DNA of 59,613 bases, the filler included, from Sphacelaria rigidula (taxonomy: Eukaryota), in assembly GCA_964200075.2 (NCBI GenBank). It is 8 parts of 8 records of this genome, joined end to end, with 100 filler letters (N's around TTAATTAATTAA, not from the genome) between each part and the next. Parts side by side here need not be neighbours in the genome. Positions count along the whole stretch, not along the records: positions 29,861 to 37,224 come from CAXNAA020015243.1; 7 more parts are not named here. One strand, 5' to 3'. This document shows positions 193-44,960 of the stretch, one piece after another (the first letter of the stretch is position 1; every line of letters starts with the position of its first letter). Both the position numbers and the translations under genes were made by a program. Below the pieces are notes generated by a model. It had not been told where the DNA came from. It saw only the letters and a list, made by a program, of their open reading frames with translations, and did not search any database.

Positions 193-2013
193 TCAGATAG
201 ACAATGGGACGAACAGTAGCATCGACTTGCTCCTGTTCCAATGTGCAGCCAAACCCAATTTTTGGAAGAATCTGTGTGGAGCCGGAAAGGGCGGGAACCC
301 TGCTCCGCGGCCGACCAGTCGGGGAAGACGAGAATCGGCGGGGGCGAAAGGGTGTCGAGGAGGCGGCGGACGGTTTTTTTCCATTTCCAATGTGAACACA
401 AATTTCACCCCTTTTCTGAGGAGGGTGGTGAGGGGTTCCAGCTTGTGGGCAAGGTTTGGCAAGTACTGTCTGTAGTAGCTTAGACCTCCCAACAAGGAGC
501 GCAGTTGAGAAATGTTCCGTGGCATGGGCATATCGGAGAGTTCGGCGACCTTGTCGAGGTTTGGGCTACGATCTTCGGGGGTGATGCAATGACCCAAGAA
601 CTTAGTCTTCGTGGCGCCAATGCGGGATTTGGAGGGTGCGAGTTTCAAGTTGTGTTGTTCAAACCGATCGAAGAATGATGCCAACTGTTCGACGTGTTCG
701 GCCGGTGTGGAGTCGGGGCACACCGCATCATCAAGGTACATATGGCATTTGGGCAATCCATCAGTTACACGGAACATTACACGTTGAAACGCACCTGGAG
801 CTCTGGCGGCACCTTGTGGCGTAACCAACCACTCGTACAAACCTGATGGCGTGCAAAACACCGTCAGTTCAATGGAATTCGGATCCATCACGAGCTGGTG
901 GTAGCCGGACTGCATGTCAAAGTTCGAAAATACTTTACCCTCGCCAAGAGAGTCAATAATTTCATCAATCCGGGGAAGTGGCAGCCGGGCGATTTTGATG
1001 ACAGCGTTCAATCGTTGATAATTGGCCGTCAGTCTGATTTTGCCATTCTTCTTACGGACGACTACTAAAGGCGAGGCCCACGGAGACGTCGAGTGCCGAA
1101 TCAAACCGGCAGATAAGTAACCATCCAGAATTACCTGGATCTTACCCGCCAAGAGGGGGTTCGTACGGTACGGACGCATAGCGATAGGAGGAGTGTCATC
1201 AGGAATCTTGATATTAAATGGTGTCGTGGTACATCGACCTAAATTCAAGGGTGCAGTAGAAAACCGTTCAGAGTATCTAATCAAGATGGATCTCAATCTA
1301 TCGATTGCAGTGGGTGTCCAACCATCGCCAGATAGATCAAAACCAATATGCCGCAAGTGAGGGGGAATGTCATCCCACAACTTTTGAAAACTGGCGCGTT
1401 GTTCTGGAGAGAATCTATCCAGTAATGCAGTTGGGGGTTGAGGATCAGGCGCATCCGGTGGATTCGTCATCACCATGGGGTCAGACTTGTGTGGAGGAGG
1501 GGGGCCCGTTGATTTCGAAGGGTCGGTCGGCGAGGTGTTGTTCGCCGGGGGGCACACATCTGACAGAGCGGTTCGTATGAGAGGCGCTTGAGCATAACCC
1601 AACAACCGACCGTTGAGTGTATCAAAACATGCAGGGGACGTAAGGTTAATGGCCTGCCTACCTTCGTGGGCAAAGACTTCGGTCCGTTCAAACGGACCAA
1701 CTTGTGCTTGGTCAGGTTTGAGCAACTCGACCAAATGATGTCCTGTGAGGGCGGGCGATCCATTGCGTCTCACGAGGTTCACTTGTATTAGTTGGGGCTC
1801 ACGAGAAAGCGAGATTACCGGTTCACCAACATAGTACAGACGGAAAGCATCACCTGTTTTCGTGGGATCATCCTCATAAGCATGAGCTCCCGAATCAGTG
1901 TCGAAGTGACCCAGAGACAGTTTGCCTGTTACTGGACGATTCGGGACAGGTGTGTCCGTCGTACACGTATGTGTGAATAGACAGCCAACTATCTCGACCC
2001 AACAAAACATCAA
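193..2013 (-). pseudogene. Gypsy reverse transcriptase (frameshifted into RNase H near 380)
   Basis: RT motifs as above. The RNase H start (LSPPPILVFPDW...FRLHTD) continues in ORF 171..401 in another frame. Confidence 0.9.
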
Positions 2014-4975
2014 AAGACATGGAACCGTAGGGCACTATTAGTGCCCATATGGACAACCGAGCAGTAGGAGTAGTATCCTGGTAAAATTGTACCCTTAGTC
2101 TCACCGATTGATTGACCGTAAGAGATGTGGGGGAGCCAAACCCACCAAAAACACGAGGGTGCACGGTGGACAGACAATACTTGTCCGCCGCGCCCGCGTT
2201 GATCATCTGTTGCCAGCAGCTGGCGGTGATGAACGTTTGAGGTGAACCAGAGTCCGGTAGTGCAAGATTTATCAAATGACAGTTTGCACGCGCTCCACTA
2301 TGTAAGCCTATTTTGGTCGTAAAAGAAGCATCATCCACAGTTGCAATACCACTGACGAGATCGGGCCCGAATTCGGGTATGGCATCTGACACATCCTGTT
2401 CCGCGTTGTGAACAAAGGTGCTAAAATACACCCGTTTATGGTCCTGTGGGACAAGTTTTTGGTCGGAAGGATGGTGCGTGCATGGAGTGTCAGTGTTTGT
2501 GCCTGGAATATTTGTCTCATCAGTCGAGGGTTGAATCTCATGTACTGCAACGGAGGGGCGATGCCGGGGAAGGGCAGTTGTCGTGGTTGGATCCGACAAC
2601 TGATCTGTGCGTGGTGTTTCACCCTTATTGGCCAACAAGGGGGGCGAATCGTCAGCGTGAAAAGCGGGATCAATTACATTATCCAGCTTGGTCGGAACAG
2701 GGGACAATTCATCGGGGCGCGGTGTTGAGTTTGATACGCCAATCAACTCCATACCATCACTAGTTAGGGCCAACATGGAAGGTTTTGGAGACGATTCGTC
2801 AGGACGCGGGGTTGGTAAAGCTGGACTGTTCAACCCGGCGTCTATGAAAGGGGCCAATGTGGGCGAGTTAGGAGACGAGTCGTCTTGCGTAACACTTTGT
2901 TTGCCTGGTGACGAACACACGATTGGGGTGCCTTCATGACTAGGATGCGAACGTCCATGAGTCGGCGAAGTTTCTGTCCCTACAGACGACAACGCTTCAT
3001 CGGAAAGGGGTTCCAACGTAGTGCACGCGGGGTGGTCAGGGAGCAGTAACGATCTGTTCGAAATCTGGGAAGTACCGGCCTGTTCCACTGTAAGGTTTTC
3101 ATCTGTCTGAGCCCACACGCAATCTCCTCCGTGGAGTTTACGTGCACTTGCTACATCAGGGTTATCTACATGATCATCTGGAGGAGCCCGTCTCTGGTGA
3201 CGCGTGTAGCGCACGAAAGGATCGGCGGCTCCAGGAGCTATTGAAATGAGTTCTTGGACAGTCAAACCTAGGTCACGCTCTTGGCGCACCACCTGAGTCG
3301 CTGTCACTTGGGGTTCCATTCCAACCCGCTGAGCGACGGAAAGCATGGGTTCTTTGCGGTTGCGATCCTTCAAGGAATAATTACGCTCATCAAATAAAAG
3401 GGAACCGGGTACCGTAGTTTTTGCGGAACTCGGCAGGGTAGTTAGCCGGGCACTTGAGCAGTTGGGGGGTGCTCGAGTGTGAGGCTTCGAATTTTTGTGT
3501 TCTCCGATGAACGGTCGGAGCAGCAGTCTCCATCGTACTAGAAGATCGGCTCCTGAGGCGTAGGAAACTGCACTACTACATGACTTCCTCTCCTTGGAAG
3601 GAAGGGGATTCGGTTGAATACGATTAGTACCTGATGAATGTATAACTGGGTGATCAAATCCAGGTTCAAAACGTTGGGTTTGGTCATTGCTCAATTGATA
3701 GCCATGCAACGGTGCACGGGCTTCGACTGTCTTGGAACCCTTCAAGGCAGGGTCAGCATATCCAGGAAACCCACACCACATGGTTGAACCCGCGGTGGCC
3801 ACCGTTGATTCGTGCGTGCGATGTGCGTGACCTGGCCGAACGAAAACAAATTGCTGACATAAAAGTGATGGGTACTTCTGCAGTGAAATACCTGTCATTG
3901 TATATTTCTAATTGTGGGATTGTACCAACTAAATCAGAACTGACTTACAGAAGTAGGAAAATAAATAGGCAGGTGGCGGGGCGTAGCTTTTGGGCTCAGC
4001 AACGCGTCCTGGGTTACCCCACTGTATGCTATTTGGAATCTCCGCAACTTGTAGAACGTTCCCAAAAGGTTGCCAAGTTGTGAGGTGAGCATCAGTGCTG
4101 TGTGGGTAGGTACCGCCCTGGCGGGGTTCAGCCGCGGCACTAGGTCCATTCGTGTGTAAACGTCTACCGTTTTGTGAGTGGGCCGGTGCATGTGGTTGAA
4201 CGTGTGCCAGGTCAGGTGGGTCAGGCGGTGAATCAGTTGTCGCCTTGAGGGCGGAGCAGACGACCGTACGAACGCAGTTGTGATTGCCAGACTTGCCAAC
4301 ATAGTACAAAATGACGCGAAGCTTCCAAATGTCAGACAACAGCTTATATTCTTGCTCCGGAATTTCCAGAGCCTTTGTGGATTTGCATATAGCGCGTTCT
4401 AGTTCATTTTGTTCTGTTGGCTTGTTCTCGGTATGGACATTCATCTCACGGGGGACCTGCGCGGGCTCTTGTATCCCTGAAAAACCCTCATGTTGACCCG
4501 CCTGGAGACGGGCCAATTCCCTCAACGCATGTTCAAGCTGTGCTAGATTGCTGTTATTAATCTGGTCCCAGCACTTTTTTTCGTTCAATTACCGAAAAAT
4601 TGTACCAACGCAGGGGAATGGGGGCTGGGGAAGTTTGCTTGAGCTGGAAATATGCTTCGTCACGCGTGGGCGGGGATTGTTCTGGCTTGGGCTGGTCATC
4701 AACAGCCAGAGTGGGGCTATTACAGGGTTCAGCACCGGTTTGGGTGTAGGGGTCACTTGGAGAGATGCCATCTGAGAATGAAGAGTGGGAACACCGTCAG
4801 CGGTTTGAGTGGCTGGTTGGTGTACAGGGGAGTGGGCAGCAACGGGTTCAGGGTCAGCATGTGGAGGAGGATTGTCTTCATCCACACTGGCGTCCCTGAA
4901 AAGACGTCCTGCAACGACGCTATCATCAACATCAAAACGTTCCGATTTGTTTTTGCCAAGCGTCTCACTACGCAT
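193..4975 (-). mobile_element. Ty3/Gypsy LTR retrotransposon, 5' half (gag-like, protease, RT, start of RNase H), degenerate; pol runs off the contig start
   Basis: ORF 193..2013 has Gypsy RT motifs (PYRTNP, STSPWASPLVVVRKKNG, DMQSGYHQ, PQG, YLDD, LRSLLGGLSYYR). ORF 1895..3898 ends in an aspartic protease motif (LPDSGSPQTFI, then DVLLGRD in the next frame). Upstream ORFs 3929..4588 and 4589..4975 are in gag position. Frameshifts separate the domains. Confidence 0.92.
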
Positions 4976-5607
4976 GATTCAGGTTGGCTGTACGGTTGTT
5001 TTCACCATTGTCTGTAGGCAGCGCACCGTCCTTCGTGACATCGTGCTACGATGAAAACGAAGGGCGGTTGATATCAGACATGGCTTGTACACTTGCGCCA
5101 TCGCGCCGAACCGGTAACGTAGAGACGCAGAGGTTGAAAAGTGAACGTTTCGAAGTGGAATTGAGCATCGTAGTTGAGGAATGAGGCGGCGTGAACAAAA
5201 CTAAAAAAGGAACAGAGTGGCAGGGTACTGTCGACAGTCGATCGACATGTAGTTCCGCGCACTCCGTACATGCATGAGGTCTACCACCTTGTCAATCAGG
5301 TGCAGACAAGAGAGAAAGAAAAACAAATATGCCGAAGGCACACGACAAACCGTAGGTGTGTGTGTTCGTTGGAACAAATTGTAACAGCAAGAGAAAATAA
5401 AACGAAGATTGTCACAAGCAACAGACATACAGTGTCTGTCACCAGCGCAACAGCGCATTAACAAACCTGTCTGCCATGAAGGGATATACGTGTGGGACGC
5501 AGCGAACCGCAACGTCAACCGCTCAGTTCTGAGGTTGAGAGAAAAGAAACACAACTGTCGGATGCCGTATCGTATTTCCAGAGGCAATATCAGCGCAGCT
5601 GGTGATA

Positions 5608-5624
5608 CTCATATAACAGCACCA
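5608..5624 (-). promoter_or_regulatory. Candidate primer-binding site of the contig-1 Gypsy element
   Basis: Minus strand reads TGGTGCTGTTATATGAG (TGG start, complementary to tRNA CCA) about 630 bp upstream of the gag-like ORFs. The cognate tRNA was not identified. Confidence 0.3.
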
Positions 5625-6119
5625 CCTAGTTCACTGAAAATGGCCGAGTTGGAGTCTTGGTGACGTACATCGTACAGGTAGACAGTTAATAAATGTACAA
5701 ATAAAACCGAAATACAAATGTGCAGTGCAGTGCAGACAGCAGCGTAAAACGCATCGGACAACAGAATGCTGTGTGGCACAGTACAGTACACATGATCTTC
5801 ACGTGGTCGAGCGGGCGTGGTCGACAGTGCAGTACGATACCACTGTGTTCGCATCACATGAAAAAAAATCCGACACAACGTTATGCCCGCGCCGTGTTCT
5901 TATCTACAATACAATATAGATGACTTCGTTCAGATAGTGTAGTAGTACCAACACATGCTACAGTACGGCACCTCACCGTCCGCAAGATATTTCCCGCTGG
6001 GACCATTTCTAATCGAAACGGTGCCGTACTGTCGTCAGCACTTCAATTCGGAACACTATTTCAACGGAAAAAGTGAGTGGCCTTCTAGACGACCAAGTAT
6101 GTACTGTAGTGCGCGTTGG

Positions 6120-6214
6120 TGGGGCGGCAATCAAACTCTGGGGCGGCAATCAAACTCTGGGGCGGCAATCAAACTCTGGGGCGACAATCAAACTCTGGGG
6201 CGGCAATCAAACTC
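6120..6214. repeat. 19-bp minisatellite x5 (TGGGGCGGCAATCAAACTC)
   Basis: Five directly abutting copies with one substitution in copy 4. Confidence 0.95.
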
Positions 6215-7366
6215 TGCGTACACTGGTTCCGTGCAAAAGTAACAAGAGTGCAGAGTCGAGCGCTTGTATACAAGTAACATGAGCCTCGCGCATCGCCGTG
6301 TTCAATCATGCTCGTGTACAGACAAAACACTCTCATCCTGGTCCATCATGCCGCATCGATATAATTCGGTGTGCATGGTGGCTCAACGTTCCGTGTTTGG
6401 GCAAGAAAAGTCGTATGTACAGCGGGCGGCGATTGAAATAGCCCGCGAACTCTTTACCTACAAGCATGAATCGGCGTGTGTTTGGACACATGTCGGTCGG
6501 TTCGGTTGATACAGAATCGACGGACTGTGAGCAGGGGCGCTTGCGGGGGCAGGTGGTCGGGAGGGCGGTGAAAAAGCTAGGGACCCTTGAGGGGCGTATT
6601 TACACAAGGAACGTATGAGCGGTTCAATTATCCGAGAACCGCCCGTGTGTGAAAAAGGACACGGCACTTCAGATCGAGTGTGCATGAAAACGGTATGCGT
6701 TCTCTCTGCAGTGCAAAACGTTGCCACAGTCGCTTGGCTTGTACCGTCGATATGACCTGCAGGGTGCGGGGAATATGCTTGTGCAGCAAGAGAGGGCTGA
6801 CGCGCGCGTTCATACCTGAAGCGCCTCATGGTTCGGCCGCCACTGCCTGAAACCAACGTGGTTACCGCGTGGCACATCGGAGACCTGCAGCGAACTCGTG
6901 TCGGAATGTATGTCCAACTTCGAGTAAAAGAGGGAACAGCGGTCGAAGACGCTGTCGTATTACCTTGGTGTATTACACCGCTAAATCGTGTACACAAATA
7001 TCAAGTGAAAATGAAAGACCGAAAATACAGGGCTTGAAAAAAACAAACCAACGAAGGGTTGTGGTGGGCTGGAACGCGTACAACAGCAGCCCACGGGGAG
7101 AAAAACAGTACAGCTTGAGGTCACAAGCTACCTCTGAAGCCCCATGTGTGGAGGAATAAGCAATTACCGCAAACAGTAGTGCCATATACGCCGAACGCAA
7201 GCAAGCCACACCCTTGGGGGTGTAGACAGGCGGTCCTGTTTCCGACTTGTTACACTCAAACTATATGTTTTTCTCACACAAAGGCAGTCGTCAACAGTAG
7301 ACAACTGTAGTTGAAAGTAAGCACTGAGCTCTTTCTGAAAAGGAAACACCACTGTGATATCAAGGG

Positions 7367-19455: not shown

Positions 19456-22185
19456 TTACCATCCATCAATCCAGTCAGAGTCTTCGATACGTTGTTGACC
19501 AGTTGCATCGGCCAACTCAAGGATGTTGCGCATCGTTCGACGCATTGAGGAAATGAGAGCGGACGTAAACTGACCAGAATCCTCATTGTCTGCAGCAGGC
19601 ATGGTTTTGATATGCCAGAGTTTCTTTACATCCATCTGTAAGTACTCACGCTTGATTGCAGCGACACGAGACGCTTCTCTACGAGTATCGGAAGCGACTT
19701 TATCAGCGGTAGCTTGTTGTTTGGCTGCTGCGGCGGCAGCTAGTGACCGAGCCGAGTTTGAAGACAATGGGCGAGCCCAATTGTCACCATCACTATCCGA
19801 GAGACCTAAAAGGCGAGCAGACGCAGCTGCTGAAGGAGGCGTTACTTGCCTGACGGCCGGTGAGGGCCGCACGGATCGCGCTGAGGCGTGGTGGCGGTGC
19901 CTGGCAGTCGATGAAGTAGAGGGCTGATTACCGGACCGTTTGTGGCTGCCCCGGGTTGTGCGTTGACCGTTGTTGTTGCGGAGGGTCCGTTGACCACGGC
20001 GTGGTGCGGCCCCGGAAGGGTCGTCGTGAGAGTCTCCATCATCACGACGGTGGCGAGGGGGGTGGGGTGTGATCCAGGCCCCATCATCGTCGGGCGGCAG
20101 CGTGTTGTGGGTTGCCCGCATAGCAGCGAAGAGGGCGTCGACGGCGGTCTCATAAGCGGGGCGGCGACTGTCCCCGGTACCAATTGTAAGGTAGAGGACA
20201 ATTCGTTCAATGGTGAGAGCTCCCGGGTCGTTGTGCGGCAGCTGTCCCCCTTGCTGAAGGAAGGGGACGATCACACTATTTATGGGCAGAGTTAGTGAGC
20301 GCCAAGCCTGCTCAGAGGCGCGGAGAACATTGTTGCGGTTATACTTCCCTGAAAGTTGGCGTAGCGTCCAAGAAAGCCAACAACGTTCGCTGCCCTGAAG
20401 GCGGAGCCAAGGTGTGGGGGCAGGGGGCGCCGAGGCCTGAGGGACCTGCGGTGGTGCAGGCGGGGTGCGCGTAAGCGAGGCCGTAGAAGCGGCAGCAGCA
20501 GCGTATGGGCGCGAGGGCCGACGGTTCTCCGCAGAGCCTGGATGTGCAGAGGTAGGTGTAGGCGCTGACGCGGTCGGCGTTGTCCTCAGAAGAGGAAGGT
20601 GTCGCTCCTGTTCCAAAGATCGGAGAGCCGAGGTGGCGGTGGCCGTGGCCGCGGTGTATTGGCGCAGGCGGTGTTCATCGCGCCCGATGGTGTCGCGCAT
20701 GTTGTCAAAGGCCGCGAGACGCTCATTCAGAGTCTCCTGGGCCGCCTGCTGGCGGCTGGTTGCCGAGTCGACGGTTCGACGTTGGCGCGTGAGACGTGCC
20801 GTGAGGTCGTCATGAAGGAGACGGTGGGCAGCGTCGTCCGCCGTTTGGCGGGGCGAGGGTGGCGCAGGGTGCGTGGCCGGTTGCATGGCGCGGTATTCCC
20901 CGAGGATTTGTTCTTGATCGGAGCGGGGACCTCGCAACCAGAGCCGAGGCAGGAGGTCCGGCGGGCAATGCTCGACGCCCAACAGGGGGCGGTCGTTCGT
21001 GATAGATCCGGGGGCAGGCGCCGGAGCCGAGCCCGTGGCAGTAGAAGCCTGCGGCGAAGTGGCCGATTCCTTATCAGTGGCCGTGATGGGGGTGTCATCC
21101 GCGGCCGCCGCGGCGGGAGCGGCAGTCGCCGCCGCGCTGGGGGCGGGGAGCGTGACACGGGTGCTTTCCGCATCTGTGTCGATGTCTGCAGCCGCAGGAG
21201 CTGGAGTGGCCGCGATAGGAGAGGTGGTGGAAGGTGCCTGGGTGTGAGCTCTTGTTGAAGCAGATCGCAGGTATCGACGAAGATCTGCAATTTGTCGTTC
21301 CACCGCACGTACAGTGGCAGCATCAGGGTAGGGCGGAAGGGCACGGTTAGTGCTGCGCCCGTTTCGCAAAGATGCGGGAATGTCAATCAACGAGGCATCT
21401 ATGGACAATCGTGAACTCACATGGGTCCGATCGACAGATTTAGGTCGTGAGGATCCCGAGGTCGATGATAATCGCGATAGCAATGCACGTACATCATGAA
21501 CATGAGTGGTATGATCACCATGGTGGATAGTGGCATCACCATCCATATCCAAATCAAAGGGAACATCTGAGGTTGAACGTTCGTCATCATGGGCTGCAGC
21601 CGCTGGTACAGAGGCCTGATGATTCACATTACTGTCAAAGTGAACATGATCTGAGGGCGTTGAATGTTGAACGGCTGTGTGAAACGCGGCCGCAAGCGCT
21701 TGTGAAAGGGGAGTTGTCGCCGGACCGTCAGAAATGACAGCCGGTGATGAACGAAGCAAGTGCTCAAGAGCCGTTACTAAAGGCAAGTGCCCTGTGGAAA
21801 GCTCTTCGGAGCGGCCAAGACGCGAGGAGGATGTTTGGCGCGAGGGCTGGTAAACAGAAGTGTCCTTACGATACATGTCGTATCGTCGCGGGCGCTGTAA
21901 GGCATCGGAACCCTTGTGCGACGTACCGAAAACGTCGGAAGGCATGGAGGGGTGCCGTTCTTCAACACCGCGAGCGCGAGGTGAGCCAATAACCGCGGTA
22001 GAAGCCTGAAGCGGTTTGCGTTTCACATTTGTGGCAACGCGTGGCGACTCGTCAGACATGTTGGAACCCCGAAACGGAGCATGTTGAACAACAGAGCGAG
22101 CGCGTAGCGACTCGTCGATCATATCGGGAGTCTTGAGCGGTGTGCGTTTCGCAACAGAGCGAGCGCGGAGCGACTCGTTGACCAT
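19456..22185 (-). CDS. Long Gag-like polyprotein N-terminal region (Ala/Thr/Pro-rich, coiled coil, 21-aa repeats)
   Basis: Open frame of more than 900 codons immediately downstream of the PBS; first ATG at 22185. Confidence 0.65.
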   Translation of the reverse strand: MVNESLRARSVAKRTPLKTPDMIDESLRARSVVQHAPFRGSNMSDESPRVATNVKRKPLQASTAVIGSPRARGVEERHPSMPSDVFGTSHKGSDALQRPRRYDMYRKDTSVYQPSRQTSSSRLGRSEELSTGHLPLVTALEHLLRSSPAVISDGPATTPLSQALAAAFHTAVQHSTPSDHVHFDSNVNHQASVPAAAAHDDERSTSDVPFDLDMDGDATIHHGDHTTHVHDVRALLSRLSSTSGSSRPKSVDRTHVSSRLSIDASLIDIPASLRNGRSTNRALPPYPDAATVRAVERQIADLRRYLRSASTRAHTQAPSTTSPIAATPAPAAADIDTDAESTRVTLPAPSAAATAAPAAAAADDTPITATDKESATSPQASTATGSAPAPAPGSITNDRPLLGVEHCPPDLLPRLWLRGPRSDQEQILGEYRAMQPATHPAPPSPRQTADDAAHRLLHDDLTARLTRQRRTVDSATSRQQAAQETLNERLAAFDNMRDTIGRDEHRLRQYTAATATATSALRSLEQERHLPLLRTTPTASAPTPTSAHPGSAENRRPSRPYAAAAASTASLTRTPPAPPQVPQASAPPAPTPWLRLQGSERCWLSWTLRQLSGKYNRNNVLRASEQAWRSLTLPINSVIVPFLQQGGQLPHNDPGALTIERIVLYLTIGTGDSRRPAYETAVDALFAAMRATHNTLPPDDDGAWITPHPPRHRRDDGDSHDDPSGAAPRRGQRTLRNNNGQRTTRGSHKRSGNQPSTSSTARHRHHASARSVRPSPAVRQVTPPSAAASARLLGLSDSDGDNWARPLSSNSARSLAAAAAAKQQATADKVASDTRREASRVAAIKREYLQMDVKKLWHIKTMPAADNEDSGQFTSALISSMRRTMRNILELADATGQQRIEDSDWIDGW

Positions 22186-22209
22186 GTTGGAAGTCTTGGA
22201 CAAATGGCG

Positions 22210-29680: not shown

Positions 29681-30699
29681 AAAACACGCCACTCAATACA
29701 TAAGCTAGGCAATCAGGTTACCGCTTTTTTTTTGCGCCCTTGCGTTTTTTTTTTGCGGTANNNNNNNNNNNNNNNNNNNNNNNNNNNNNNNNNNNNNNNN
29801 NNNNTTAATTAATTAANNNNNNNNNNNNNNNNNNNNNNNNNNNNNNNNNNNNNNNNNNNNACTCGACCGGTTGAGGTGGAACCTTGTTCGTCGCCTTGGT
29901 GAGTACAGGCACGTGGGGCACTGCTGTCTGACTAGACTAGAGGGTGATGTCGGTAAAATGTTCCGCAGAGGGGTATGCGGATGGATGATGGTTGAGACCA
30001 CAAAATTTGAAGTGGGTTCCGAAACTCGACATCTAAGTGAAAAAGTTGTTATCATTCCGAGAGGTGTAGGATTCGCGAGGCATCGGCTTCTTGACTGGAT
30101 CGGTTGATGAAACTTTGTTATTATGGTAGGAGCAAGAACTGAGTGGCGCGCAATACTAGTAGCTTGGCCTGATCATGATAACATCGGAAGAGTGACTGTG
30201 GGCACAAACGAAATTCCTGTGCTACAGGTCAGCAAAACGCATATGACATATTTGATGGCTAATAGATAGAGCTGACTTTATGAGCGAGATGCGGTTCATG
30301 TGCACAGCATGACAAAACAAGAGTGCATTGTATCACCCATATGGGAGCTGGTCGTTGCTCGGTTGGCTGGCCAGGCGAATTCCGTACAGGTTTACACATG
30401 TTGGCCCGGCATGTAAAAGGCAAGGTGCACTGTTTCATGCAGCCAGGATGGTAGCGGCCGAATTGCCGTTTGATCCATGTGTTGTATGTGATGGAAAAAT
30501 TGAAGAGTTGAAATAATAGTCTAAATCCGGGTATAATATGAGGGTGTGCGTTCGCGACTGCCGAAACGCGACACCACAGTACGGTACGTGGTAAAAGTAT
30601 GTTCATCGGTTGGTGATTGACGCGCCTGAGTGACATGGATATTAATACTTTTCCTTTCTGTTGTCCCACTGCCCATTCCCCTCGGGTCTGCACGATAAG

Positions 30700-33600
30700 T
30701 GAGACGCTGAGCCTCCAAAATCGAGGCTAAATGCGTTGCCGCCGGTGCCTGCGCTAGCCTCTCCAAGACCTGAACTAAGGATGCCCCTTTTTTTCTTGTT
30801 GGACTGTTGAGGCTCCTCTTCCTCAGAATCAACGTCGTCGCTGTCGTCTTCATCATCACCACCCTCTTGCTCCGATTCGCTTCCGCTTTGTTCCATGGGT
30901 GCCACCACAAGCGGCTCCTTCCGTCGCTTCTTCGTCTCCCGACGTGCTTGCGCTTTATCGTCCTTCTGCTTGCGATTCTTCTTGTTTTTTCCTTCTTCGC
31001 TGTTGGATTCTTTACCATCTTTCTCCGATGGCTGTCTGTTCGTCTCCGGGATAGCCTTACTATCATCATCCTCGTCGTCGTTGCTGTCGCTGCAGTGTTC
31101 TTCATTTTCATCTTCTGATGAACTATCGGCGTCGCCTTCGAAGTAGCTAGCCTTGAGTCCCAAGGACAGCTGCTTCCTCTTCTTATCAGCCTGTCAATTC
31201 AACAAACAACTTTTGTCACAAGCCTTCGTGCAATCATAACCACAGGTGTACCAACTACGCAAAATATTACCGCACAATCGCCCAAACAACTCATCAAGAA
31301 TTGTGCGTCCACTTGTCTCGCTTCCATAATAAATTGAACGATGAGCGGGTGTCGAACATTTCACTCATCACCTTACACTCTCCCTTGCACTGCGCTAAAA
31401 ACGATCCAACTGTAGCATGGACAGAGGCAACTGTTTTGGTTCACACAGCAGTGCATCCATTTCCCCCGGAGGTGAAAAAAAAAACGTACGCAAGGTTTGC
31501 GCAGCGAGACTACTGCTGTCGTATGCACGATCATAAAACAGCAACAGGCCATGCATATTGTGCCGTGTGTGTGTTGTCGTCCCATTTATTCTGGGCGCCA
31601 GAATACCCCTCTCGGGATGTGTGGGCGCATCAGCCGGGGTCACACAGGAGCTATTTTTTCATTTGTTTCTAGTACCCCACTTTTCTTTTGAGGTGCTTGT
31701 CTTTATTTTTCATCGCGAGGAGGGTTCAGCAGTCCCTTTCCCTCGTCAACCGTCACGTATTTTGTGTACCCACGACATAGTCGCTCTCCACAGTTGGGCA
31801 TGATGTAATTTAAAAAAAACACCAAAATACGCAAGTGTGAAGCGTAGAAAAGGTGCACCGTGAACTAGTGTAGGGACAGCATCGCCTGATGACGCGATTT
31901 GCATCACCTGCATGACCTTGGCCTTCACCAAGTCTCCCACGTCGTACATCTCGTTGAGCTCCGTCACCCTCTTGTCTGCAGCTTCGGATATGTGGCAGAG
32001 GCCAGTGAGCTACCATGCCGTTCACCCGACACAGGACAAAACAACACGCAGCACGGGGAGATGGGTTCAGAGGTATTGTAGGTGAAAGAGTGTATTCACG
32101 GTAACATGCAATCCTTCGACATGTACTCACTGCCCAAAACACAACTTCTTGGCTGTTGCCTAATGAAAAACGAAATGAAGTAGCGGAAGACATTGTAGGG
32201 ATCCGGATCTTCTACATTCGTTTCCAAGGGATGATCTACACAAGCTTTAAGACGCAACTGGCGAAGTACGTGAAAAGAGGGGACCGGTGTCATCTGAACT
32301 ACCACCGAGCGGACTATGGCCCTACTTCGCTCACACGATGGCATTCATCACTTGATCCACGAACAATCCAGCCGTGGTCAAACGAGATAGAGACACGACC
32401 AAGGTTGAGACGCGGAAACGCTATCGCTGAAGACGTCTCTAAAAAAGGGTTGCATGACTGTCGATATCGGCGCCATTTGACTATTGGCAGATGCTCACCG
32501 AAGAGTTCTGGACTTGAATGAAGACCCCGTAGTCCCTGATGGACGTCACCACTCCCTTCACTTTGAGCCCCATCTTCAGCTTTTTGCTGTCCCAGGTCAA
32601 GAAGTTCTTGTCTCCTTTCCGTACGGCAGAATCTTGGAACGTCAGCGAAACCTGATTCAACTCCTCGTCCTGGCAAGGGGTACACGGTGGCATGGGGATC
32701 ACGAAGGATGGGCAAGGGTGCTGTATCCATCCCGTACGTGAAATGCTCCAACATAGACTGAGAACGGCGCGTGATGGATTCATGGAGCCCACGTTTCCTC
32801 GTGTGGAGAAATGTACTTATGATCCTGAATGTGGTGGTCATACGACAGAAAATCTCCGATAGCTACGAAAGCCTGGCCTGAGCACACAAGGTCTTTGCCG
32901 GTGGAAGTTGCGAATTATTGAACGGGAAGCACCTGGACGTGTTTGGTGAGTTGGGGGCGGGGGCAGTCGCAGGGGGGTGGTATGCGAGTGTTCCGTCCGT
33001 TCACCTCGGGTAGTCGTCCGTCCGTCTCCAATTTAACGACTAGGGCTGGATGAATGCCGGATCAATCCATGTACGACAGCCAAGTAGTCGATTGAATGCT
33101 GTGGGCCGATGCAAACGTGCAAGATTCCGACCGACATGGTATTACCAATCCCCCAACTCCGGAGAAATTACCTCTCAGGGGAGGATGTGTTTCCCCGTAT
33201 TGGTTATCCTGCACATTACCAGAGGTGCCTTCGTGACTACACTTCCACCTTGTATGTACTACGACGAGCTAAGTAGAAAGACGGGGAACCAATACACCGT
33301 GTTATGGACTATGCTTGACCTTCCTGGATATACCCATGTAGCTTCGCCGTCCACCGTCCACACCGCTTCACGCCAAGAGACTCATCGTGAATATTTTGGT
33401 GAATAAATGTTGGCATCCCTCTTGGATGAAAGGATCAGCTCCGATGGAATGAGGTAATCAACAGGTTTTCTTCTCTTCTTGTCGACGAGAGTACGACAAA
33501 CCATAGGATGTTATGCCGTTGAAGGTTGGGCGCAGGTGTGTAACGCCAACCAGAGAGATGAACAGGTTACTAGAAAAGAGTATGCAACCAGCGGACATGT

Positions 33601-36600
33601 CATCATTGTTTGGGGAAACAGCTGTCATCTCTGTGGATCAGTTGGAATAGCTTTGATAAATCAGGCACTCGTATACAATGATCCAACAGCACACACACGT
33701 TCATATGATACCCAAAAAGTAATGGAAATCCGGAGAAGGAAGCGTTCGACATGAACCAGGTACACTGCTTCACACAACAAGTGATGAAAAGACACGCATC
33801 ATACTCGACTCAAGCAAGGAGACCCGTCATCAATATTTCGGGAAATGGCTGTTTTCATCCCTCGTGGATCAGGGGATTAGCTCTGACGAATTCAGGTAGT
33901 CAGCCGGATTTGTCCCCTCCCAAGAGCAAGCGTGTACCACAACATAGCACATCATGAAATGTTGAGAAACAAGAAAAATCACATACATGGGGTGCCAATG
34001 TGTTCCCGGTGAGCTGCAAAGATCGGACGAAAACGTCAACCGTCGCAAGGTGAAAATCCTCACTCGTGTTTCCAAAGGCTAGGCGCAGATATGCAACGCT
34101 AGCCGGGTACATCTGTCCAGCACGGTCTTGTCTGGTGTGCAACCGAGAAATCCGTCATCAATATTTTGGGAAATGGCTGTTGTCATCCCTTGTGGATCAG
34201 GGGATTAGCTCTGATAATTCAGGTAATCATTCGGATTTCCGTGCTGCATGACATATACATCGCGCTGTGGGCTTTGATACGATTCAAGGGGGACACAAGC
34301 GCCTATACGCTACTCGAAAAATCAGACAAACATCGACACAAACCAGGGACGTCGTTCCCACGTGCCGAGTAGATCGCAACAGATGTCATACTCTTCTGGT
34401 GTTGGGAGGATCCGTCATCAATATTTTGGGAAATGGCTGTTTTCATCCCTCGTGGATCAGGGGATTAGCTCTGACGAATTCAGGTAGTCAGCCGGGTCTG
34501 CCCTCTCTCAAAAGCACGCGTACAGCGAATTATCTCTTGTCATAATTTACCTCATCGAATACCGCACACCAAGTCGGTGCCAACAATGCAATAAGGAAAG
34601 GCGGAGGGTACCTACAGTGACCCCGAAGACGAAAGAAACATGAGTAAATGATTGGAGTAATCCCTGTGATAATGTCGTATCGAACACAAGGTTTATGGGA
34701 CAGCGCAATGTCAAAGTTCATCGTGCAACCCACCGACCCGTTATCAATATCTTGGGAAATGGCTGTTTTCATCCCTCGTGGATCGGAGGATTAGCTCTGA
34801 TAAATTCAGGTAATCACTCGGATTTTTGCGCTGCATGGGAATGCATACAGAGCACCGTGGGAAACAGCAACATCAGGCATACATGTTTCCGCACCCCACA
34901 ATCGATCTAGTTGGGCCTTTGCCGCGGAAAATACCCCGGTAAAGTAGAGACTCATGTTCGATGGGGAGGGAGGGGGTTATCGCACTCAAGACTCATGTTA
35001 GGAGTGTTTTGACACGATCCCCCATTCTTGTAATGGGATTTCACATCGTCCTGCAAAACGAAACAGCGCTAAGCGGTATGAAGAAATCTTTGAGAGGACA
35101 AGGGCTCTCATGTGAATATTTTCGCTTGCAGCGGCATGCCGAAGTGGTACCTTCGTAAAACAATGGGCTCATAGCATACCCCCCCTCTCCGCCCTCGCGC
35201 AGTATTACTCAGAAGTGCATGCACCATGACGCCCGCAAATGCGTGATAGTCGACTGGAGCGACGAGACCCGTCATCAATATTTTGGGAAATGGCTGTTGT
35301 CATCCTTCATGGATCAGGGGATTAGCTCCGATAGTTCAGGTAATCAGCCGGGACTTCGCCGCCAAGTGCGTGCATCCAATGCACAGATCATCTTAATCTG
35401 CACATTAGTACACAATTACCACGCCGTATCCAAGTATACCAGTTATAGAACAACGTTCGCGGATGAGAAAACAATTTTTTCGCAACCCTTTTTCCAACAG
35501 TGGCATGCACAACTGCAGGGGATTGAACCAACGCTGAGGACCCTTCATACGGCAACGACAACAAAACGCGAGGCCGACCTCCATCATGACGGAAGACGTC
35601 AACATAAATCCATGTTGTACAATGACTTGGTCCCCAAGTAGCGACCTGCCTACCATAATTTTTCTTCCATTATTTCATTCATTTGTCGCACCTTGATTCC
35701 CCTACTTCGTCAGTTCCACGGGATCAACCCCTCTTTCTCCATTCCAAGGTAGAGAATGACAAAAAAAAAACATCATCACCTTTTCCAGCACCTTGCCCAG
35801 CACCATTCTCCCGGGGGGGAACTCAGCCTGCGGATTGGGCACATATCGGTCTGACAGCAGCTTGAGCATGACGCGTCCGCGCACGCCACCGTTCAGTCGC
35901 ACGAAGCATCCCGCCTTGGTCACCGATGCCACGTAACACTGATTGACCACCAACAACAAGTAGCGTGACAGCAGCAGAACGTGAAAACCTCCAACAGGGA
36001 CAGGGTGTCATCAGTTGAATCCGCATCAATTGCACTGGGGAATAGTATTCATGATCCGGATGGACCACCCGCGCGTCTTCAGGGTTGACTGACAGCAAAA
36101 GCGAGCCCTCGAGTCGATGAAGGAGGATGTCTGTGCTCAACATTACACCTCACCACGACGGCCAAGTATCATCGAGGATAAGAAAAGATTCCGGGGTAGT
36201 CCACGGCGTTATTTGTGCGAAAATCGGCACTTGGTTCCGTGTTACATTCGAGGGGGTCACTTTACTGCTTTTTCGTCGTATGATTCCCCGGAATACAGTC
36301 AGCTCGGTCAAATACCCGCCTGGACACCAGTCACCGTGCGTTGCATCAGCACTTTTTTGTCTTCTTCATTTCCCGTGAACGTACATCCTCGACTTTTCCA
36401 TTACGGAGACGATCAAAATTAACCGGGACTGCCGTGAGTATATATTCTGCCGCCACGCCATCAACGACGCTCGATGAGGTGCCAATCTCGCAGCCGAAGT
36501 GCGGAGGAATTGGATAATGCTCTCCGTACAAGGTTCATTCAAATCGATCACGTCGTTTCAAAATTACGAGATTATTCATATGAGCATGCATGCAGGCCTG

Positions 36601-36816: not shown

Positions 36817-37324
36817 CTGTTACGTTTCATTTGCAGCACAACCGACGGCATCAGTTCGTGCACATGGAAGAGTTTTTACTGGCAGAATCAAAGTGACAGG
36901 CGACGGTACGAATTGCAGATGAGATATCCACCCAGTTCCGGGGGCCGTCGGGATCATTGCACTGCATACATACCTTCGGCGGGGCGGAATAAGGGGCATC
37001 TTCAGCGGCTGGGCGACAACTTCGACCCGTGGCTAGTCGTTACGGGGTAGGACAACGTTCAATTGCGGAGGAGTGGAGAAAGATGGGGATCTACAGCCGC
37101 CATCTGATGTCAGACTAGAATATTTCGCACCCGGTTGTTGTGGTGTGCAGAGACTGACACAGTTCCGAGGGGGGGATGGAGGGGGGGATGGAGGGGGGGG
37201 GGGGGGGGCTTCTCATCATCTCGCNNNNNNNNNNNNNNNNNNNNNNNNNNNNNNNNNNNNNNNNNNNNTTAATTAATTAANNNNNNNNNNNNNNNNNNNN
37301 NNNNNNNNNNNNNNNNNNNNNNNN

Positions 37325-40300
37325 GGCCGGCGCAGTTGTTTGGGGCATGCGACGTCTGCGTCAGTATTTGTATGGCATCCCGTTTTTTTATTCATACCGA
37401 TCACAAGTCTTTGGAAAGCCTTGCCAAAATGGCGGAACACAACGCTAGGGTCCAACGCTGGTCCGAAATCCTGTCGTCTTACAACTTACAACTGAAGTAC
37501 CGCACAGGTCCCCAGAATGCAAACGCCGACTTCCTGTCACGCTTGCCCACACCAGCTCAACCTATCGATGAATCTCCCATGGGACGTATCACCGATCCCA
37601 CCGAAGACATTGTATATTTCATAAGCAGGAATGGACATAGAGGTCTCTACACACCACTTTCACTGAGAGAAACGCCGGCCTTAGGCACGGGTGAACTGAC
37701 GACCACAGCCCACGCATCAGTCCTAGGCACTTTGCAACCTCAATCGTTCTACTCAATTTGGAATGGACTGTCCTACGAATACTGTTGGCTATGCTTATTT
37801 TCGTGCAACTGGCCAGCGCATGTTTTCGCAGCAGGTGTAGAACCGTCCTTTGCTGACTCCGTCTTACCTGTTCAAGTTCGAGATTTGATTTTAAGTAGGA
37901 CTCGTGGACGGCGAACCGCCGAAACGTCCACCAAATTAGCTGTATCCGGTCCTGACCTTCCCCTCCCTGCCCCCACCGCGGTCCCCAATAGTTTCCTTGC
38001 GCCTCCGCAGCCTCCACGACGCAAGGCCCCCAGAAAATCGACCCCGATCGTGCCGCCCCTGCCAACCATAGCCGAAACCACGGCTGTGCCCCCCTCCAGT
38101 GGTGATGATATTGCAAAGACCACCACAACACCCCCCACGCTAATCGACGCAGGAGTAGACGTTAACGTTCCGTCTGAAAGTACACCAACTGGTAGGCTCA
38201 CCCTTGATTCCGAAATCACCGCTTCGTGCCAACCTCGCCCTGAACCGACCCCACACGAAGCCGACGCTCAAACAGATGGTGTGTTCAAGGAACGTTTGAC
38301 TCTCTTCTCTCACGCCGATTGGGCCCGGGAACAACAGGCAGAACATACTTGTAAATCAGCTATCCATTATGTATCTCAAGGCTGTCCATGTCCATTCTCA
38401 GAAACCGAATTCCTTTTGCCAATCGGGAATCTCAAAGCGCCCACCCAGGATGAAGTTGCTGAACTTTCAAGGAAAGGTATGCTTCATACGGATGATGATG
38501 GTATAGTTCTGTTGGTTCGCCGGCTCACAGCAGCCGTCCCCAGGGGGAAGCCTACAAGTCGACATGCCCGCTTGCTAGGTGATGAACCCATCCGCATCTA
38601 TGTCCCGATGCTCCTGCACCCATGGGTTCTACACGAATGCCATTCACAGGCATCGACTCATATAGGCGCCATTAGGACCTCCCAGATGTTGGAACGCTTA
38701 TATTGGTGGATTTGTATAGGTCAGTGTTGTCGTCGGTGGGTGAGGCGTTATCTTTTGTGTCAGGTGCGAAAGACTTCCCGTCAAACAGTTCGTTGGCCAA
38801 TTTTTTTCCATGCCACTCCCAAATGGGCCCGGTGAAGTAGTTTCGTGGGACTATTTTGACCCTTTGCCCTTGACGGATAGTGGAACTAAGTATATTTGTT
38901 GTTTACGGATAGATTTAGTCGACATGCGGTGATGCACGCCGTTCCCCCCAGTAGTTATACCGCGGAAGGTACCGCCAACATTCTTGTCTATATGAATATC
39001 CCACAGTGGGGTGTGCCCAAACGCTTACTCTCTGACAACGGCCCGCGTTTTTCAGGCAAACTTTCTGCCGCCGTCAGTGACCTTTTGGGTGCTCATCGCA
39101 TTTTCACTAGTTCATATCACCCTTCCACGAATGGTGGAACGGAACGAGTGAACCATACGATGGCACAGATGCTTACTGCTGTAGCAAATGAGAGACAGAT
39201 GGACTGGGATCTGCACCTGCCCCTTGTCCAAATGAACTACAATAAGTCAGTCAATGCTGCCACGGGATTGTTGCCGAATGCAATTCATATTGGACGCATG
39301 CCTAGGTTACCTTTAACGGTATTTGAACGCAAAAATACAGGTGGACATCAGAGTCTGGGTCGTGATGTTGCAGAGTATCATTTGTCGGTTAGCAATCGCC
39401 TGCGTCTTGCATATGAAGTGGGTCGAGAACAGAACCAAATCAATTTGGCCAAGGTGGCCAGGGCGAACTCGATGTTGGATGTTGTAGTGCATAACCGCCC
39501 GGTGTGGAAGGTAGGCCAGTGGGCATGGGTGTATAACGATGTGAAGACCATCAATCAAGGGGCTAGCTCGGAATCACCATCTTTAGATAAAGTGTTGAAG
39601 GCGAAACTATCCTTGAATTGGACTGGTCCTTGGGAAATTTCAGCTGTTGGTCGAAGCGCTACCGCACCTGACAAGAGCCCGGTGGGAGCGAAACTTTTGT
39701 ACTTGGGTTTTCCCACGGATAAACCTGGTTTGAAACCGAAAAACCACGTCTCGATGCTACGATGCAAACCGTGTATCCCCCCTCATGACTCCTCTGACAT
39801 GCCCAAACAACTGCCGGTAGGGCTTAGCCAGTATGTGTTGACCAAGTATGCGATCAAAACTCCGCCGTATCACATGACGGTCGAGGATGCGGATGCACCC
39901 CTGGGACGCGTTGAGGTAGATAGGATTTCGGGTCATCAACTGGTTCGCGGTCGTGGAGGTAAGATAGCGGTAATGTATCAAACACATTGGAAGGGTATCA
40001 TGCGTGTTGCATGGGAGCGTGAGGTTGATTTGCGTCATTTTCGTCGGGAAATACTGCTGTACTGGGTAGGAGATACCGTTCAACACCGACCTTTAAATAA
40101 GAGATATAGGTCGATGCGCAAGAGAGCTGCCGCTCGGGAACTGGCACGTGAACACTCAGCGCGGTTTGCTGTGACAGGATATAGCCTTCTTTCGCGTTCA
40201 CAATACATGCAGTGTTTTCACGGAAAACGATTGCCGAAAGGGGCGTATTTTTTGTATAAAGCCTTGGATTCACTGTGGTGGTTGCGTAGTGTACCGCGTT
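37325..40300 (+). mobile_element. Ty3/Gypsy pol 3' half (RNase H, long linker, integrase, chromodomain + extension), same family as the contig-1 element
   Basis: TDHKSL, RVQRW, NANADFLSR; HHCC region (ECH...THIG...YWW...CQ); DDE core (TDRFSR, SDNGPRF, YHPSTNGGTERVN); chromodomain-like VEVDRISGH...YQTHWKG...WERE. Frameshift near 38810. Confidence 0.92.
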
Positions 40301-40877
40301 CGAGTCGCTTGTCTTGCACTGTAGCATTGTTGGAAAACCATGTGTTCCCCCCTTCCCTCCCTTCATTTTGTTTTTCGTATCAATTAGCCCCATGCTTGTA
40401 GTGGTTGATGCTGTGTTTTGTTATTGGTATGTGGTCTTTAGTTTTTGTATCTTGATCTTTTTTTCTACCGTGTTTTGTTCTTGTTGCTTTGGATCTGATT
40501 TTGTGTTTCGATTTTCCTTGCCCTTGCGTCAATTGTTTTGATTTTTTTTGTCTTTTTTTTGTCTTTTTTTCTTCTTTTTTCGCCTTGCCCTTTGTGTTCA
40601 ACTTTTTGTGTTCAATGGGTACTTTCCTTGGTTAATTCTGGGTTCATCTGGCAAAGTATAAGTGACGATCGTTCCACTCCTGATCCCGAGTCTGGAACCT
40701 TGAGCCTCCGTCCTCCGCGCCGTACATTCACAAGCATTCCTTCTGCTGGAGCAATTGCCACGAGTAATTTATTTCTTCCGTTTTTTTCTCATTTCACGCA
40801 CATCTTGTCTTGCTTTGTTCATCGCATGGTCTTCATTTTTTTTGTTTTTTTGTTTTGATGGAAGAGTTTCCGGGGCA

Positions 40878-44171: not shown

Positions 44172-44960
44172 CTCTAGGCTGGCCTAGCTCGTGGGGATGT
44201 TTGCAAACAAAGTAAAGCCTGCACATGTACCGTAGTGTAAGTAGTAGTCGTTTCCTTTACATCTGCACGTACTAACATGTGTACGTGCATCTGCATGCAG
44301 CCTTGAATCCTACAGTGAAGAAGGTGTAGAACTACAGATGACATCGCCGACATCACCGCTGCCGAATACAAGCCTGCCTCCCGTTGCCACCGACAAAAGG
44401 CTCGACTCTGTGTTAGGGAAGAATCGATGTTTTGTGCAGAAGCGAGAAGAACTTTCCCAGATGTTTATAGTGGTTACAGTATCTGGAAGCCATTTCACAA
44501 CACGTTGACATGCAAGATTGTCTGTGTGGTGAACAAAGTGAGTCAGTTCAGTGTGGGAGCAGCAGTAAGATACAAGGACAAGTGCATCCACGATGAAGTG
44601 ACAATAATGGTGTCTGGGTTGAAGTCGAGGTTTATGAGATCCGGGAGACGGGTGTGGTGCGACCATCAGTTGGTGACAGCATCGCGANNNNNNNNNNNNN
44701 NNNNNNNNNNNNNNNNNNNNNNNNNNNNNNNTTAATTAATTAANNNNNNNNNNNNNNNNNNNNNNNNNNNNNNNNNNNNNNNNNNNNTCTCATCAAATGA
44801 AATACCAAACTGTAGTCAAGTGCGAAAGTGTAGAGAGTTGAGGGTACTATGTGCGGCGGAATTAGCCAAAAGAAAACGGCTGAGATTAGATTTTCGGTTA
44901 CAGTCTGTGCCGCGTGGTGTCGCACAAGCTGTAGCACAATTCCGAGCTCAATACTTGGTC

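Follow-up and report, generated by a model that had tools for sequence, protein, structure and literature searches.

The 59,613-base window of DNA from the brown alga Sphacelaria rigidula that was analysed here (GenBank assembly GCA_964200075.2; eight parts joined end to end with filler, positions counted along the whole stretch) carries part of an RRP5-like gene on its minus strand, and one intron of this gene holds seven same-strand copies of a unit of about 88 nucleotides (nt) between positions 33377 and 35360. We regard this array as a set of tandemly duplicated genes for small nucleolar RNAs (snoRNAs) of the box C/D class, oriented in the sense of their host gene, and consider this explanation to be highly probable. 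The intron that contains the entire array is 3110 nt long (32670..35779, minus strand) and is defined by spliced RNA contigs: in three runs of one study that were taken as RNA (X1, X2 and X3), contigs join position 32668 to position 35779, with a cut placed one nucleotide further fitting equally well, and skip 3110 nt that begin with CT and end with AC on the plus strand, i. e. GT..AG on the minus strand.

The two exons that border the intron are both covered by spliced contigs. The upstream exon (35780..35940, minus strand, depth 125-251) encodes an S1 domain: it matches the Pfam family S1 with 26.8 bits (cut-off 22) and just misses the cut-off of the S1_RRP5 family (26.6 bits, cut-off 27). 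Its best long relative, a protein of 1987 amino acids (aa) that is 53% identical, bears S1_RRP5, the RRP5 OB-fold and the Suf/HAT-TPR families, the set that is typical of RRP5. The downstream exon (32499..32669, minus strand) has a weak S1 match with an E value of 0.015, below the cut-off. The host is called RRP5-like because of the S1 match and the RRP5 domain set of the 53%-identical relative, and on this assignment all units lie on the sense strand of the gene. According to a background passage, ribosome-biogenesis genes of this kind are typical hosts of snoRNAs. The RNA contigs within the intron have a depth of 2-5 as compared to 125-335 over the exon bins, and they cover units and spacers alike; as assembled contigs they carry no information on RNA ends, strand or level. 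One RNA contig of 95 nt coincides with the fourth unit; since contigs break at repeats, nothing is concluded from this coincidence.

With a profile of the five good copies (u1 to u5), seven matches were obtained in the window, all of them on the minus strand, with E values from 2.5e-34 to 5e-9, and the next-best match after these seven had an E value of 3.2. In the order of transcription of the host, the matches are u1 (35360-35263), u2 (34832-34735), u3 (34505-34408), u4 (34244-34147), u5 (33918-33818), u6 (33679-33590) and u7 (33474-33377), and the spacers between them measure 430, 229, 163, 228, 138 and 115 nt. The good copies are 81-95% identical to each other, and pairs that include u6 or u7 are 67-76% identical. 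General repeat finding reported one 113-nt family with six copies, and Tandem Repeats Finder did not detect the array, as is expected with spacers so diverged. When the intron was aligned with itself by sensitive blastn, each of the 20 alignments (71-115 nt) was from unit to unit, and no spacer-to-spacer alignment was obtained at E<=1. An initial annotation, made from the sequence alone, had described seven copies of a ~90-nt unit in a single 3.1-kb RRP5 intron, five of them similar and two decayed, with unrelated spacers and with stop codons in all three minus-strand frames; our work bears out each of these statements, the last one in every one of the five good units.

The conservation of the units has sharp limits. 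In the good copies, 20 of 88 columns are variable within the block that extends from stem to stem, as opposed to 5 of the 6 columns that adjoin the stem on its 5' side and all 8 of those that adjoin it on the 3' side. This crowding of variable columns outside the stem identifies the stem-to-stem block as the conserved element, and conservation thus stops at the positions expected for the ends of a mature box C/D RNA. Counted from stem to stem on the minus strand, the good units are u1 (35266..35353), u2 (34735..34823), u3 (34409..34497), u4 (34149..34236), which serves as the exemplar, and u5 (33821..33909). The alignment of these five copies reveals a regular order on the host strand: the 5-bp core of a terminal stem, a spacer of 2 nt, the C box, a linker of 10 columns, a guide of 13 nt, a 1-nt spacer and the D' box CUGA, followed by a loop of 7 nt, the C' box GGGAUGA, a second conserved segment of 24 nt, the D box AUGA and the 3' half of the stem with its 5-bp core. 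In u4, this corresponds to a variant C box with the core UGAUUA at 34224..34229, preceded by an A, the guide UCAGAGCUAAUCC at 34202..34214, in which 1 of 13 columns varies among the good copies, the D' box at 34197..34200, the C' box at 34183..34189, the second segment, a possible D guide, at 34159..34182, and a variant D box at 34155..34158, all on the minus strand.

The internal boxes follow the canonical pattern: CUGA, the 7-nt loop and GGGAUGA are found together in four of the five good copies, the deviations being CCGA in u2 and AGGAUGA in u1. The terminal boxes deviate from the expected RUGAUGA and CUGA. The C box has the core UGAUUA in three good copies (u1, u2 and u4, preceded by C, G or A) and reads CUGACUA in u3 and u5, so that UGA is preserved as the core, with a U instead of a G at position 6; the D box is AUGA in four of five good copies and AUAA in u2, with GA kept and an A in position 1. 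Judged from the boxes, the D'/C' pair is canonical and the terminal C/D pair is non-canonical. In the usual kink-turn geometry of box C/D RNAs, position 6 of the C box pairs with position 1 of the D box. Because a U in the former and an A in the latter can pair, this contact would be retained, with U-A in place of G-C. The terminal stem is present as well: pairs one to three do not vary, pairs four and five are mostly formed, with C-G, U-G and U-A at position 4, and the stem reaches 9 bp in u4. If all cells of the core are considered, 73% are paired in register as compared to 16-49% if the partner strand is slid.

These data allow a differentiated view on the anatomy that had been proposed before. 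The C/D layout on the host strand stands, with the C' box better assigned to GGGAUGA than to UGAAAA and with NUGAUUA and AUGA as terminal boxes. The flanks of the units do pair, as claimed, through their 5-bp core; the additional claim that the two flanks vary together fails, as the two pairs with double changes were matched in 369 of 500 shuffles, and the flank pair quoted as GGATCCG/CGGGTCT does not occur in this form. Finally, the proposed cluster would be functional in only about four of its seven copies. The units u1, u3, u4 and u5 look intact: u1 has the boxes CUGAUUA, CUGA, AGGAUGA and AUGA and a guide with one extra G.U pair, and u3 and u5 have intact boxes with the C box variant mentioned above. 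The remaining three look impaired or dead: u2 has an intact guide and is probably impaired by its altered D' and D boxes, u6 (33590..33679, minus strand) has lost the region of the C box and has an altered guide, and in u7 (33377..33474, minus strand) the D' box, the D box and the guide are altered.

Two alternating subtypes can be distinguished among the units: u2, u4 and u6 are closely followed by the motif GGTTGCA, and a different downstream motif is common to u1, u3 and u5. Moreover, the spacings from u2 to u3 and from u4 to u5 (between 33821 and 34847) are 326 and 328 nt. The alternation and these spacings suggest that the array grew by duplication of a two-unit block. In the DNA run X5, the baseline depth is 25-30, and depths of ~105-127 and ~58-60 are reached in the u4-u3 spacer and the u5-u4 spacer, respectively; an RNA contig of run X3 joins position 34409 back to 34150, over the period from u4 to u3 (34150-34409). 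There may be more copies of this 260-bp period than the assembly contains, or their number may vary among individuals; alternatively, the signal may be an artefact of the assembly graph at a repeat.

The guide next to the D' box provides a link to ribosomal RNA (rRNA). For this analysis, eukaryotic metagenome contigs picked by a conserved 18S motif served as stand-in rRNA, among them the locus L079, a complete operon with the small subunit (SSU) rRNA at 1833-3621, the 5.8S rRNA at 3769-3914 and the large subunit (LSU) rRNA at 4047-7317. The guide UCAGAGCUAAUCC pairs over 13 contiguous base pairs, including one G.U, with positions 1883-1895 of the L079 LSU rRNA, GGAUUGGCUCUGA, and the pairing begins one nucleotide from the D' box. 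Only 4 of 300 shuffled guides reached 13 bp anywhere in the rRNA. The target string was present in 11 of the 11 loci that hold the region as a whole, the twelfth being cut by the end of its contig, and it lies in a strongly conserved stretch of the LSU rRNA that corresponds to positions 1945-1957 of the Rfam LSU model in a gap-free alignment. For human and mouse 28S rRNA, published primers contain the complement of the target. On the side of the units, all five good copies keep the complementarity; the number of G.U pairs is one in four of them and two in u1. According to the rule that the modified position is opposite the fifth nucleotide from the D' box, the predicted 2'-O-methylated uridine (Um) is the first U of GGAUU, position 1886 of the L079 LSU rRNA.

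This position recalls a methylation site that occurs throughout the eukaryotes. In the literature, it is listed as Um1888 in yeast (guided by snR62), Um2824 in human (U34), Um1882 in Arabidopsis (AtU34) and Um2170 in Dictyostelium, and a homologous guide RNA of Neurospora, CD22, is described as intronic, with the guide at the D' box and a 14/0 duplex. The predicted U is likely to be equivalent to Um1888 of the yeast 25S rRNA and Um2824 of the human 28S rRNA, with a possible uncertainty of one nucleotide. Position 1886 is close to the site numbers in yeast and plants, and, in a gap-free alignment, the human spacing C2804-A2815-U2837, which is given in a newer numbering, matches a C, an A and, within GGAUU, the first and not the second U. 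In addition, Dictyostelium has a Um six nucleotides upstream, and this one coincides with a U only when the site is assigned to the first U of the doublet, a weak indication given that the comparison involves the stand-in sequence. A 13-bp antisense element beside a D' box, with its site mapped by numbering and by the human spacing to within one nucleotide, together with seven candidate snoRNA units in the sense orientation within one splice-confirmed intron, supports the proposal of the initial annotation that the intron carries a polycistronic cluster of box C/D guide RNAs under constraint. According to PMC3511168, this Um is among the few rRNA methylation sites that were presumably already present in the last eukaryotic common ancestor.

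Several observations weigh against this interpretation and have to be set beside it. The rRNA used for pairing is a metagenome stand-in rather than the sequence of the host itself, and the duplex has its G.U at a distance of two positions from the site predicted for methylation. The equivalence to Um1888/Um2824 draws on numbering and spacing, and the assignment of this particular LSU site to the units comes from complementarity and the +5 rule only. The spacings A1871-U1892 in Arabidopsis and A1845-U1866 in Neurospora are 21 nt instead of 22 nt; neither U of the doublet agrees with them, barring an indel in those species. As described above, the terminal boxes are NUGAUUA and AUGA and not RUGAUGA and CUGA, and the covariation in the stem is no better than in shuffles. 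No Rfam family was found in the window at the gathering score, and at E<=10 the hits for the 2.3-kb array or for u4 were weak and unrelated, with neither U34 nor snR62 among them; thus, the Rfam search of the units that had been proposed as a check brought no support. The second segment has no conserved complement in the stand-in rRNA. Finally, a scan of the window for 12-nt guides beside NUGA gave 23 hits as compared to 7-22 in shuffled sequences, which is the background level. Such guide matches are therefore cheap if taken alone, and the case for the snoRNA genes does not depend on complementarity alone, because the box layout, the stem, the boundary of conservation, the 13-bp match and the known site come together. 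Other combinations of a guide and a box were likewise no more frequent in the window than background, and four of them, at 44797, 43640, 20591 and 22055, were inspected and rejected, as they had neither a box C nor a stem.

If the units are box C/D snoRNA genes, their expression and function could proceed as follows. Splicing would release the intron, which would then be cut between the units, and exonucleases would trim the fragments to each particle. The particle would form on the kink-turn made up of the terminal stem and the variant boxes C (NUGAUUA) and D (AUGA). The mature RNA of ~88 nt would pair with the LSU rRNA via the 13 nt upstream of the D' box CUGA, and fibrillarin would methylate, at its 2'-OH, the U that faces nucleotide five of the guide.

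Among the other explanations, the one that deserves most attention is that the array is an evolutionary relic, a tandem of a former snoRNA gene or of a snoRNA-like repeat that no longer gives rise to stable functional RNAs and in which the units resemble each other because of recent duplication or gene conversion and not because of selection. The visible damage in three of the seven copies and the non-canonical terminal boxes are in agreement with such a scenario, and the DNA depth and the back-joint in the RNA contig, which hint at a recent duplication of the 260-bp period, suggest that some of the similarity is young. Yet the spacers do not align while the units are 81-95% alike, with conservation ending exactly at the stem; moreover, the complement to the segment of a conserved methylation site is kept in the good copies, and the changes in the C and D boxes appear to compensate each other. 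We therefore judge a relic to be improbable. An accumulation of a small non-autonomous mobile element in the intron, i. e. a miniature inverted-repeat transposable element (MITE) or a short interspersed nuclear element (SINE), is hardly credible. The units do have short inverted ends; these measure merely 5 bp, all seven copies are in one orientation within 2 kb with none elsewhere in the window, and a comparison of the 15-nt flanks gave no direct word of more than 4 nt in common and hence no sign of a target-site duplication. Thus, neither target-site duplications nor longer inverted ends nor dispersed copies, as expected for a MITE or SINE, were observed within the window. Beyond the window, the summed DNA depth over the unit bins amounts to at most ~10 times the baseline and not to hundreds, bearing in mind that depth is not copy number, and viral contigs contained no exact copy of a 31-nt core.

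It is also very unlikely that the units play a different role, be it as microRNA (miRNA) precursors, as RNAs that resemble small nuclear RNAs, as splicing or regulatory elements, or as a coding repeat on the plus strand. The lack of an rRNA target for the second conserved segment leaves room for such a role, and plus-strand frame 3 is free of stop codons in all five good units. Against a coding repeat, an indel of 1 nt between units breaks the shared reading frame, and none of the three plus-strand open reading frames (ORFs) tested had a Pfam match. A hairpin of the miRNA type was rejected, as no fold on either strand was more stable than those of shuffled sequences (z -2.0 to +1.6); the absence of a fold above shuffles fits box C/D guide RNAs and argues against hairpin precursors. 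The units matched no Rfam family either, and any of these roles would leave the box layout and the rRNA complement beside CUGA unexplained.

Beside the paired changes in the C and D boxes, the second conserved segment is a modestly unusual trait of the proposed snoRNAs. Upstream of AUGA, it is about as conserved as the guide, with 3 of 24 variable columns, and it is identical in three of the five good copies. The search for a partner in the window returned no target besides its own antisense strand. Three matches in the stand-in rRNA were considered and rejected: a 12-bp match that is located outside of conserved rRNA, a match of 11 bp plus a mismatch in the SSU rRNA that is away from the D box, and an AU-rich 9-bp match in the 5.8S rRNA with a mismatch beside the site. 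It is tempting to speculate that the array encodes a lineage-specific, dosage-amplified double guide, in which the second segment, in addition to the conserved rRNA methylation, would modify or regulate a non-rRNA or lineage-specific target, the kink-turn would be built with U-A, and the number of copies, which may vary among individuals, would tune the dosage of the guide from inside a ribosome-biogenesis gene. We regard this extended version as rather doubtful.

As box C/D snoRNA genes, the units can be compared to several known systems. Human U34 (SNORD34), yeast snR62, Arabidopsis AtU34 and Neurospora CD22 (RF00147, RF01205, CL00055) share the predicted LSU target segment and the predicted Um with the units studied here, and CD22 likewise has a guide upstream of D' as well as an intronic gene. 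In contrast to U34 and snR62, the units have no sequence or covariance-model similarity to RF00147 or RF01205 (no hit at E<=10 for the array or u4), and because these family models are not matched, we use the term functional equivalent of U34/snR62 and leave the question of descent aside. The terminal boxes differ from RUGAUGA and CUGA in those RNAs, the duplex with the stand-in rRNA has 13 bp with one G.U as compared to the 14/0 duplex indicated for Neurospora, and there are seven tandem copies with a second conserved segment that lacks a known target, as compared to a single gene. The genomic arrangement is paralleled in plants and green algae: in PMC7671301, intronic polycistronic clusters of rice and of Ostreococcus (two cases) are described with several sense-strand snoRNA genes per intron, often in a ribosome-biogenesis gene as the host, and with a presumed release by cutting and trimming of the precursor. 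The array studied here resembles these clusters in that a single intron accommodates several units in the host's sense orientation, and it differs in its composition, with one repeated snoRNA in place of a mixture of guides. An intronic snoRNA cluster has reportedly been described in Chlamydomonas as well. Head-to-tail arrays of near-identical box C/D RNAs are known from the mammalian SNORD115/116 loci and from the snoRNA repeats of Euglena, and the many near-identical copies of one type are what the S. rigidula array has in common with them. The mammalian SNORD115/116 genes are orphan guides that are located one copy per intron in a non-coding host. The copies described here, by contrast, lie together in a single intron whose host gene codes for a protein, and for their guide there is a canonical target in rRNA.

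What this locus adds is a probable intronic, amplified cluster of a guide of the U34/snR62 type, an ordinary kind of gene, and the understanding of snoRNAs in general remains unchanged. In a lineage of which little has been charted, the work gives good arguments for a snoRNA locus that is probably unannotated; for brown algae, a literature search on snoRNAs gave only a bulk computational prediction (PMC4513859). It links this locus to one of the few methylation sites that are thought to be as old as the last eukaryotic common ancestor. Moreover, because many copies of one guide are present in a single intron and because the terminal boxes have paired changes, the array may be a useful small test case for the assembly of box C/D particles and for the processing of intronic clusters.

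Some further features of the window were observed along the way. In the vicinity of the host exons, an open frame of 183 aa (30642-31193, minus strand) with acidic and basic runs is perhaps a low-complexity linker of the RRP5-like protein. Just upstream of the host exons, two ORFs of 520 and 503 aa (37273-40401, plus strand) resemble, by eye and from the translations only, the polyprotein of a retrotransposon, part of it integrase-like. At 21960-22200 (minus strand), an imperfect tandem repeat of ~60 nt, which was met while a chance guide-like match was checked, has a coding look and contains CCAACATG, GACGAGTCGC and CGCG. Finally, the window contains 15 runs of N between 7367 and 57396, i. 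e. 14 runs of 44 N that form seven pairs spaced by ~7.4 kb and one run of 10 N. One of these pairs adjoins the chance guide-like match at 44797, and the runs in pairs have the appearance of masked sequence, not of gaps in the assembly.

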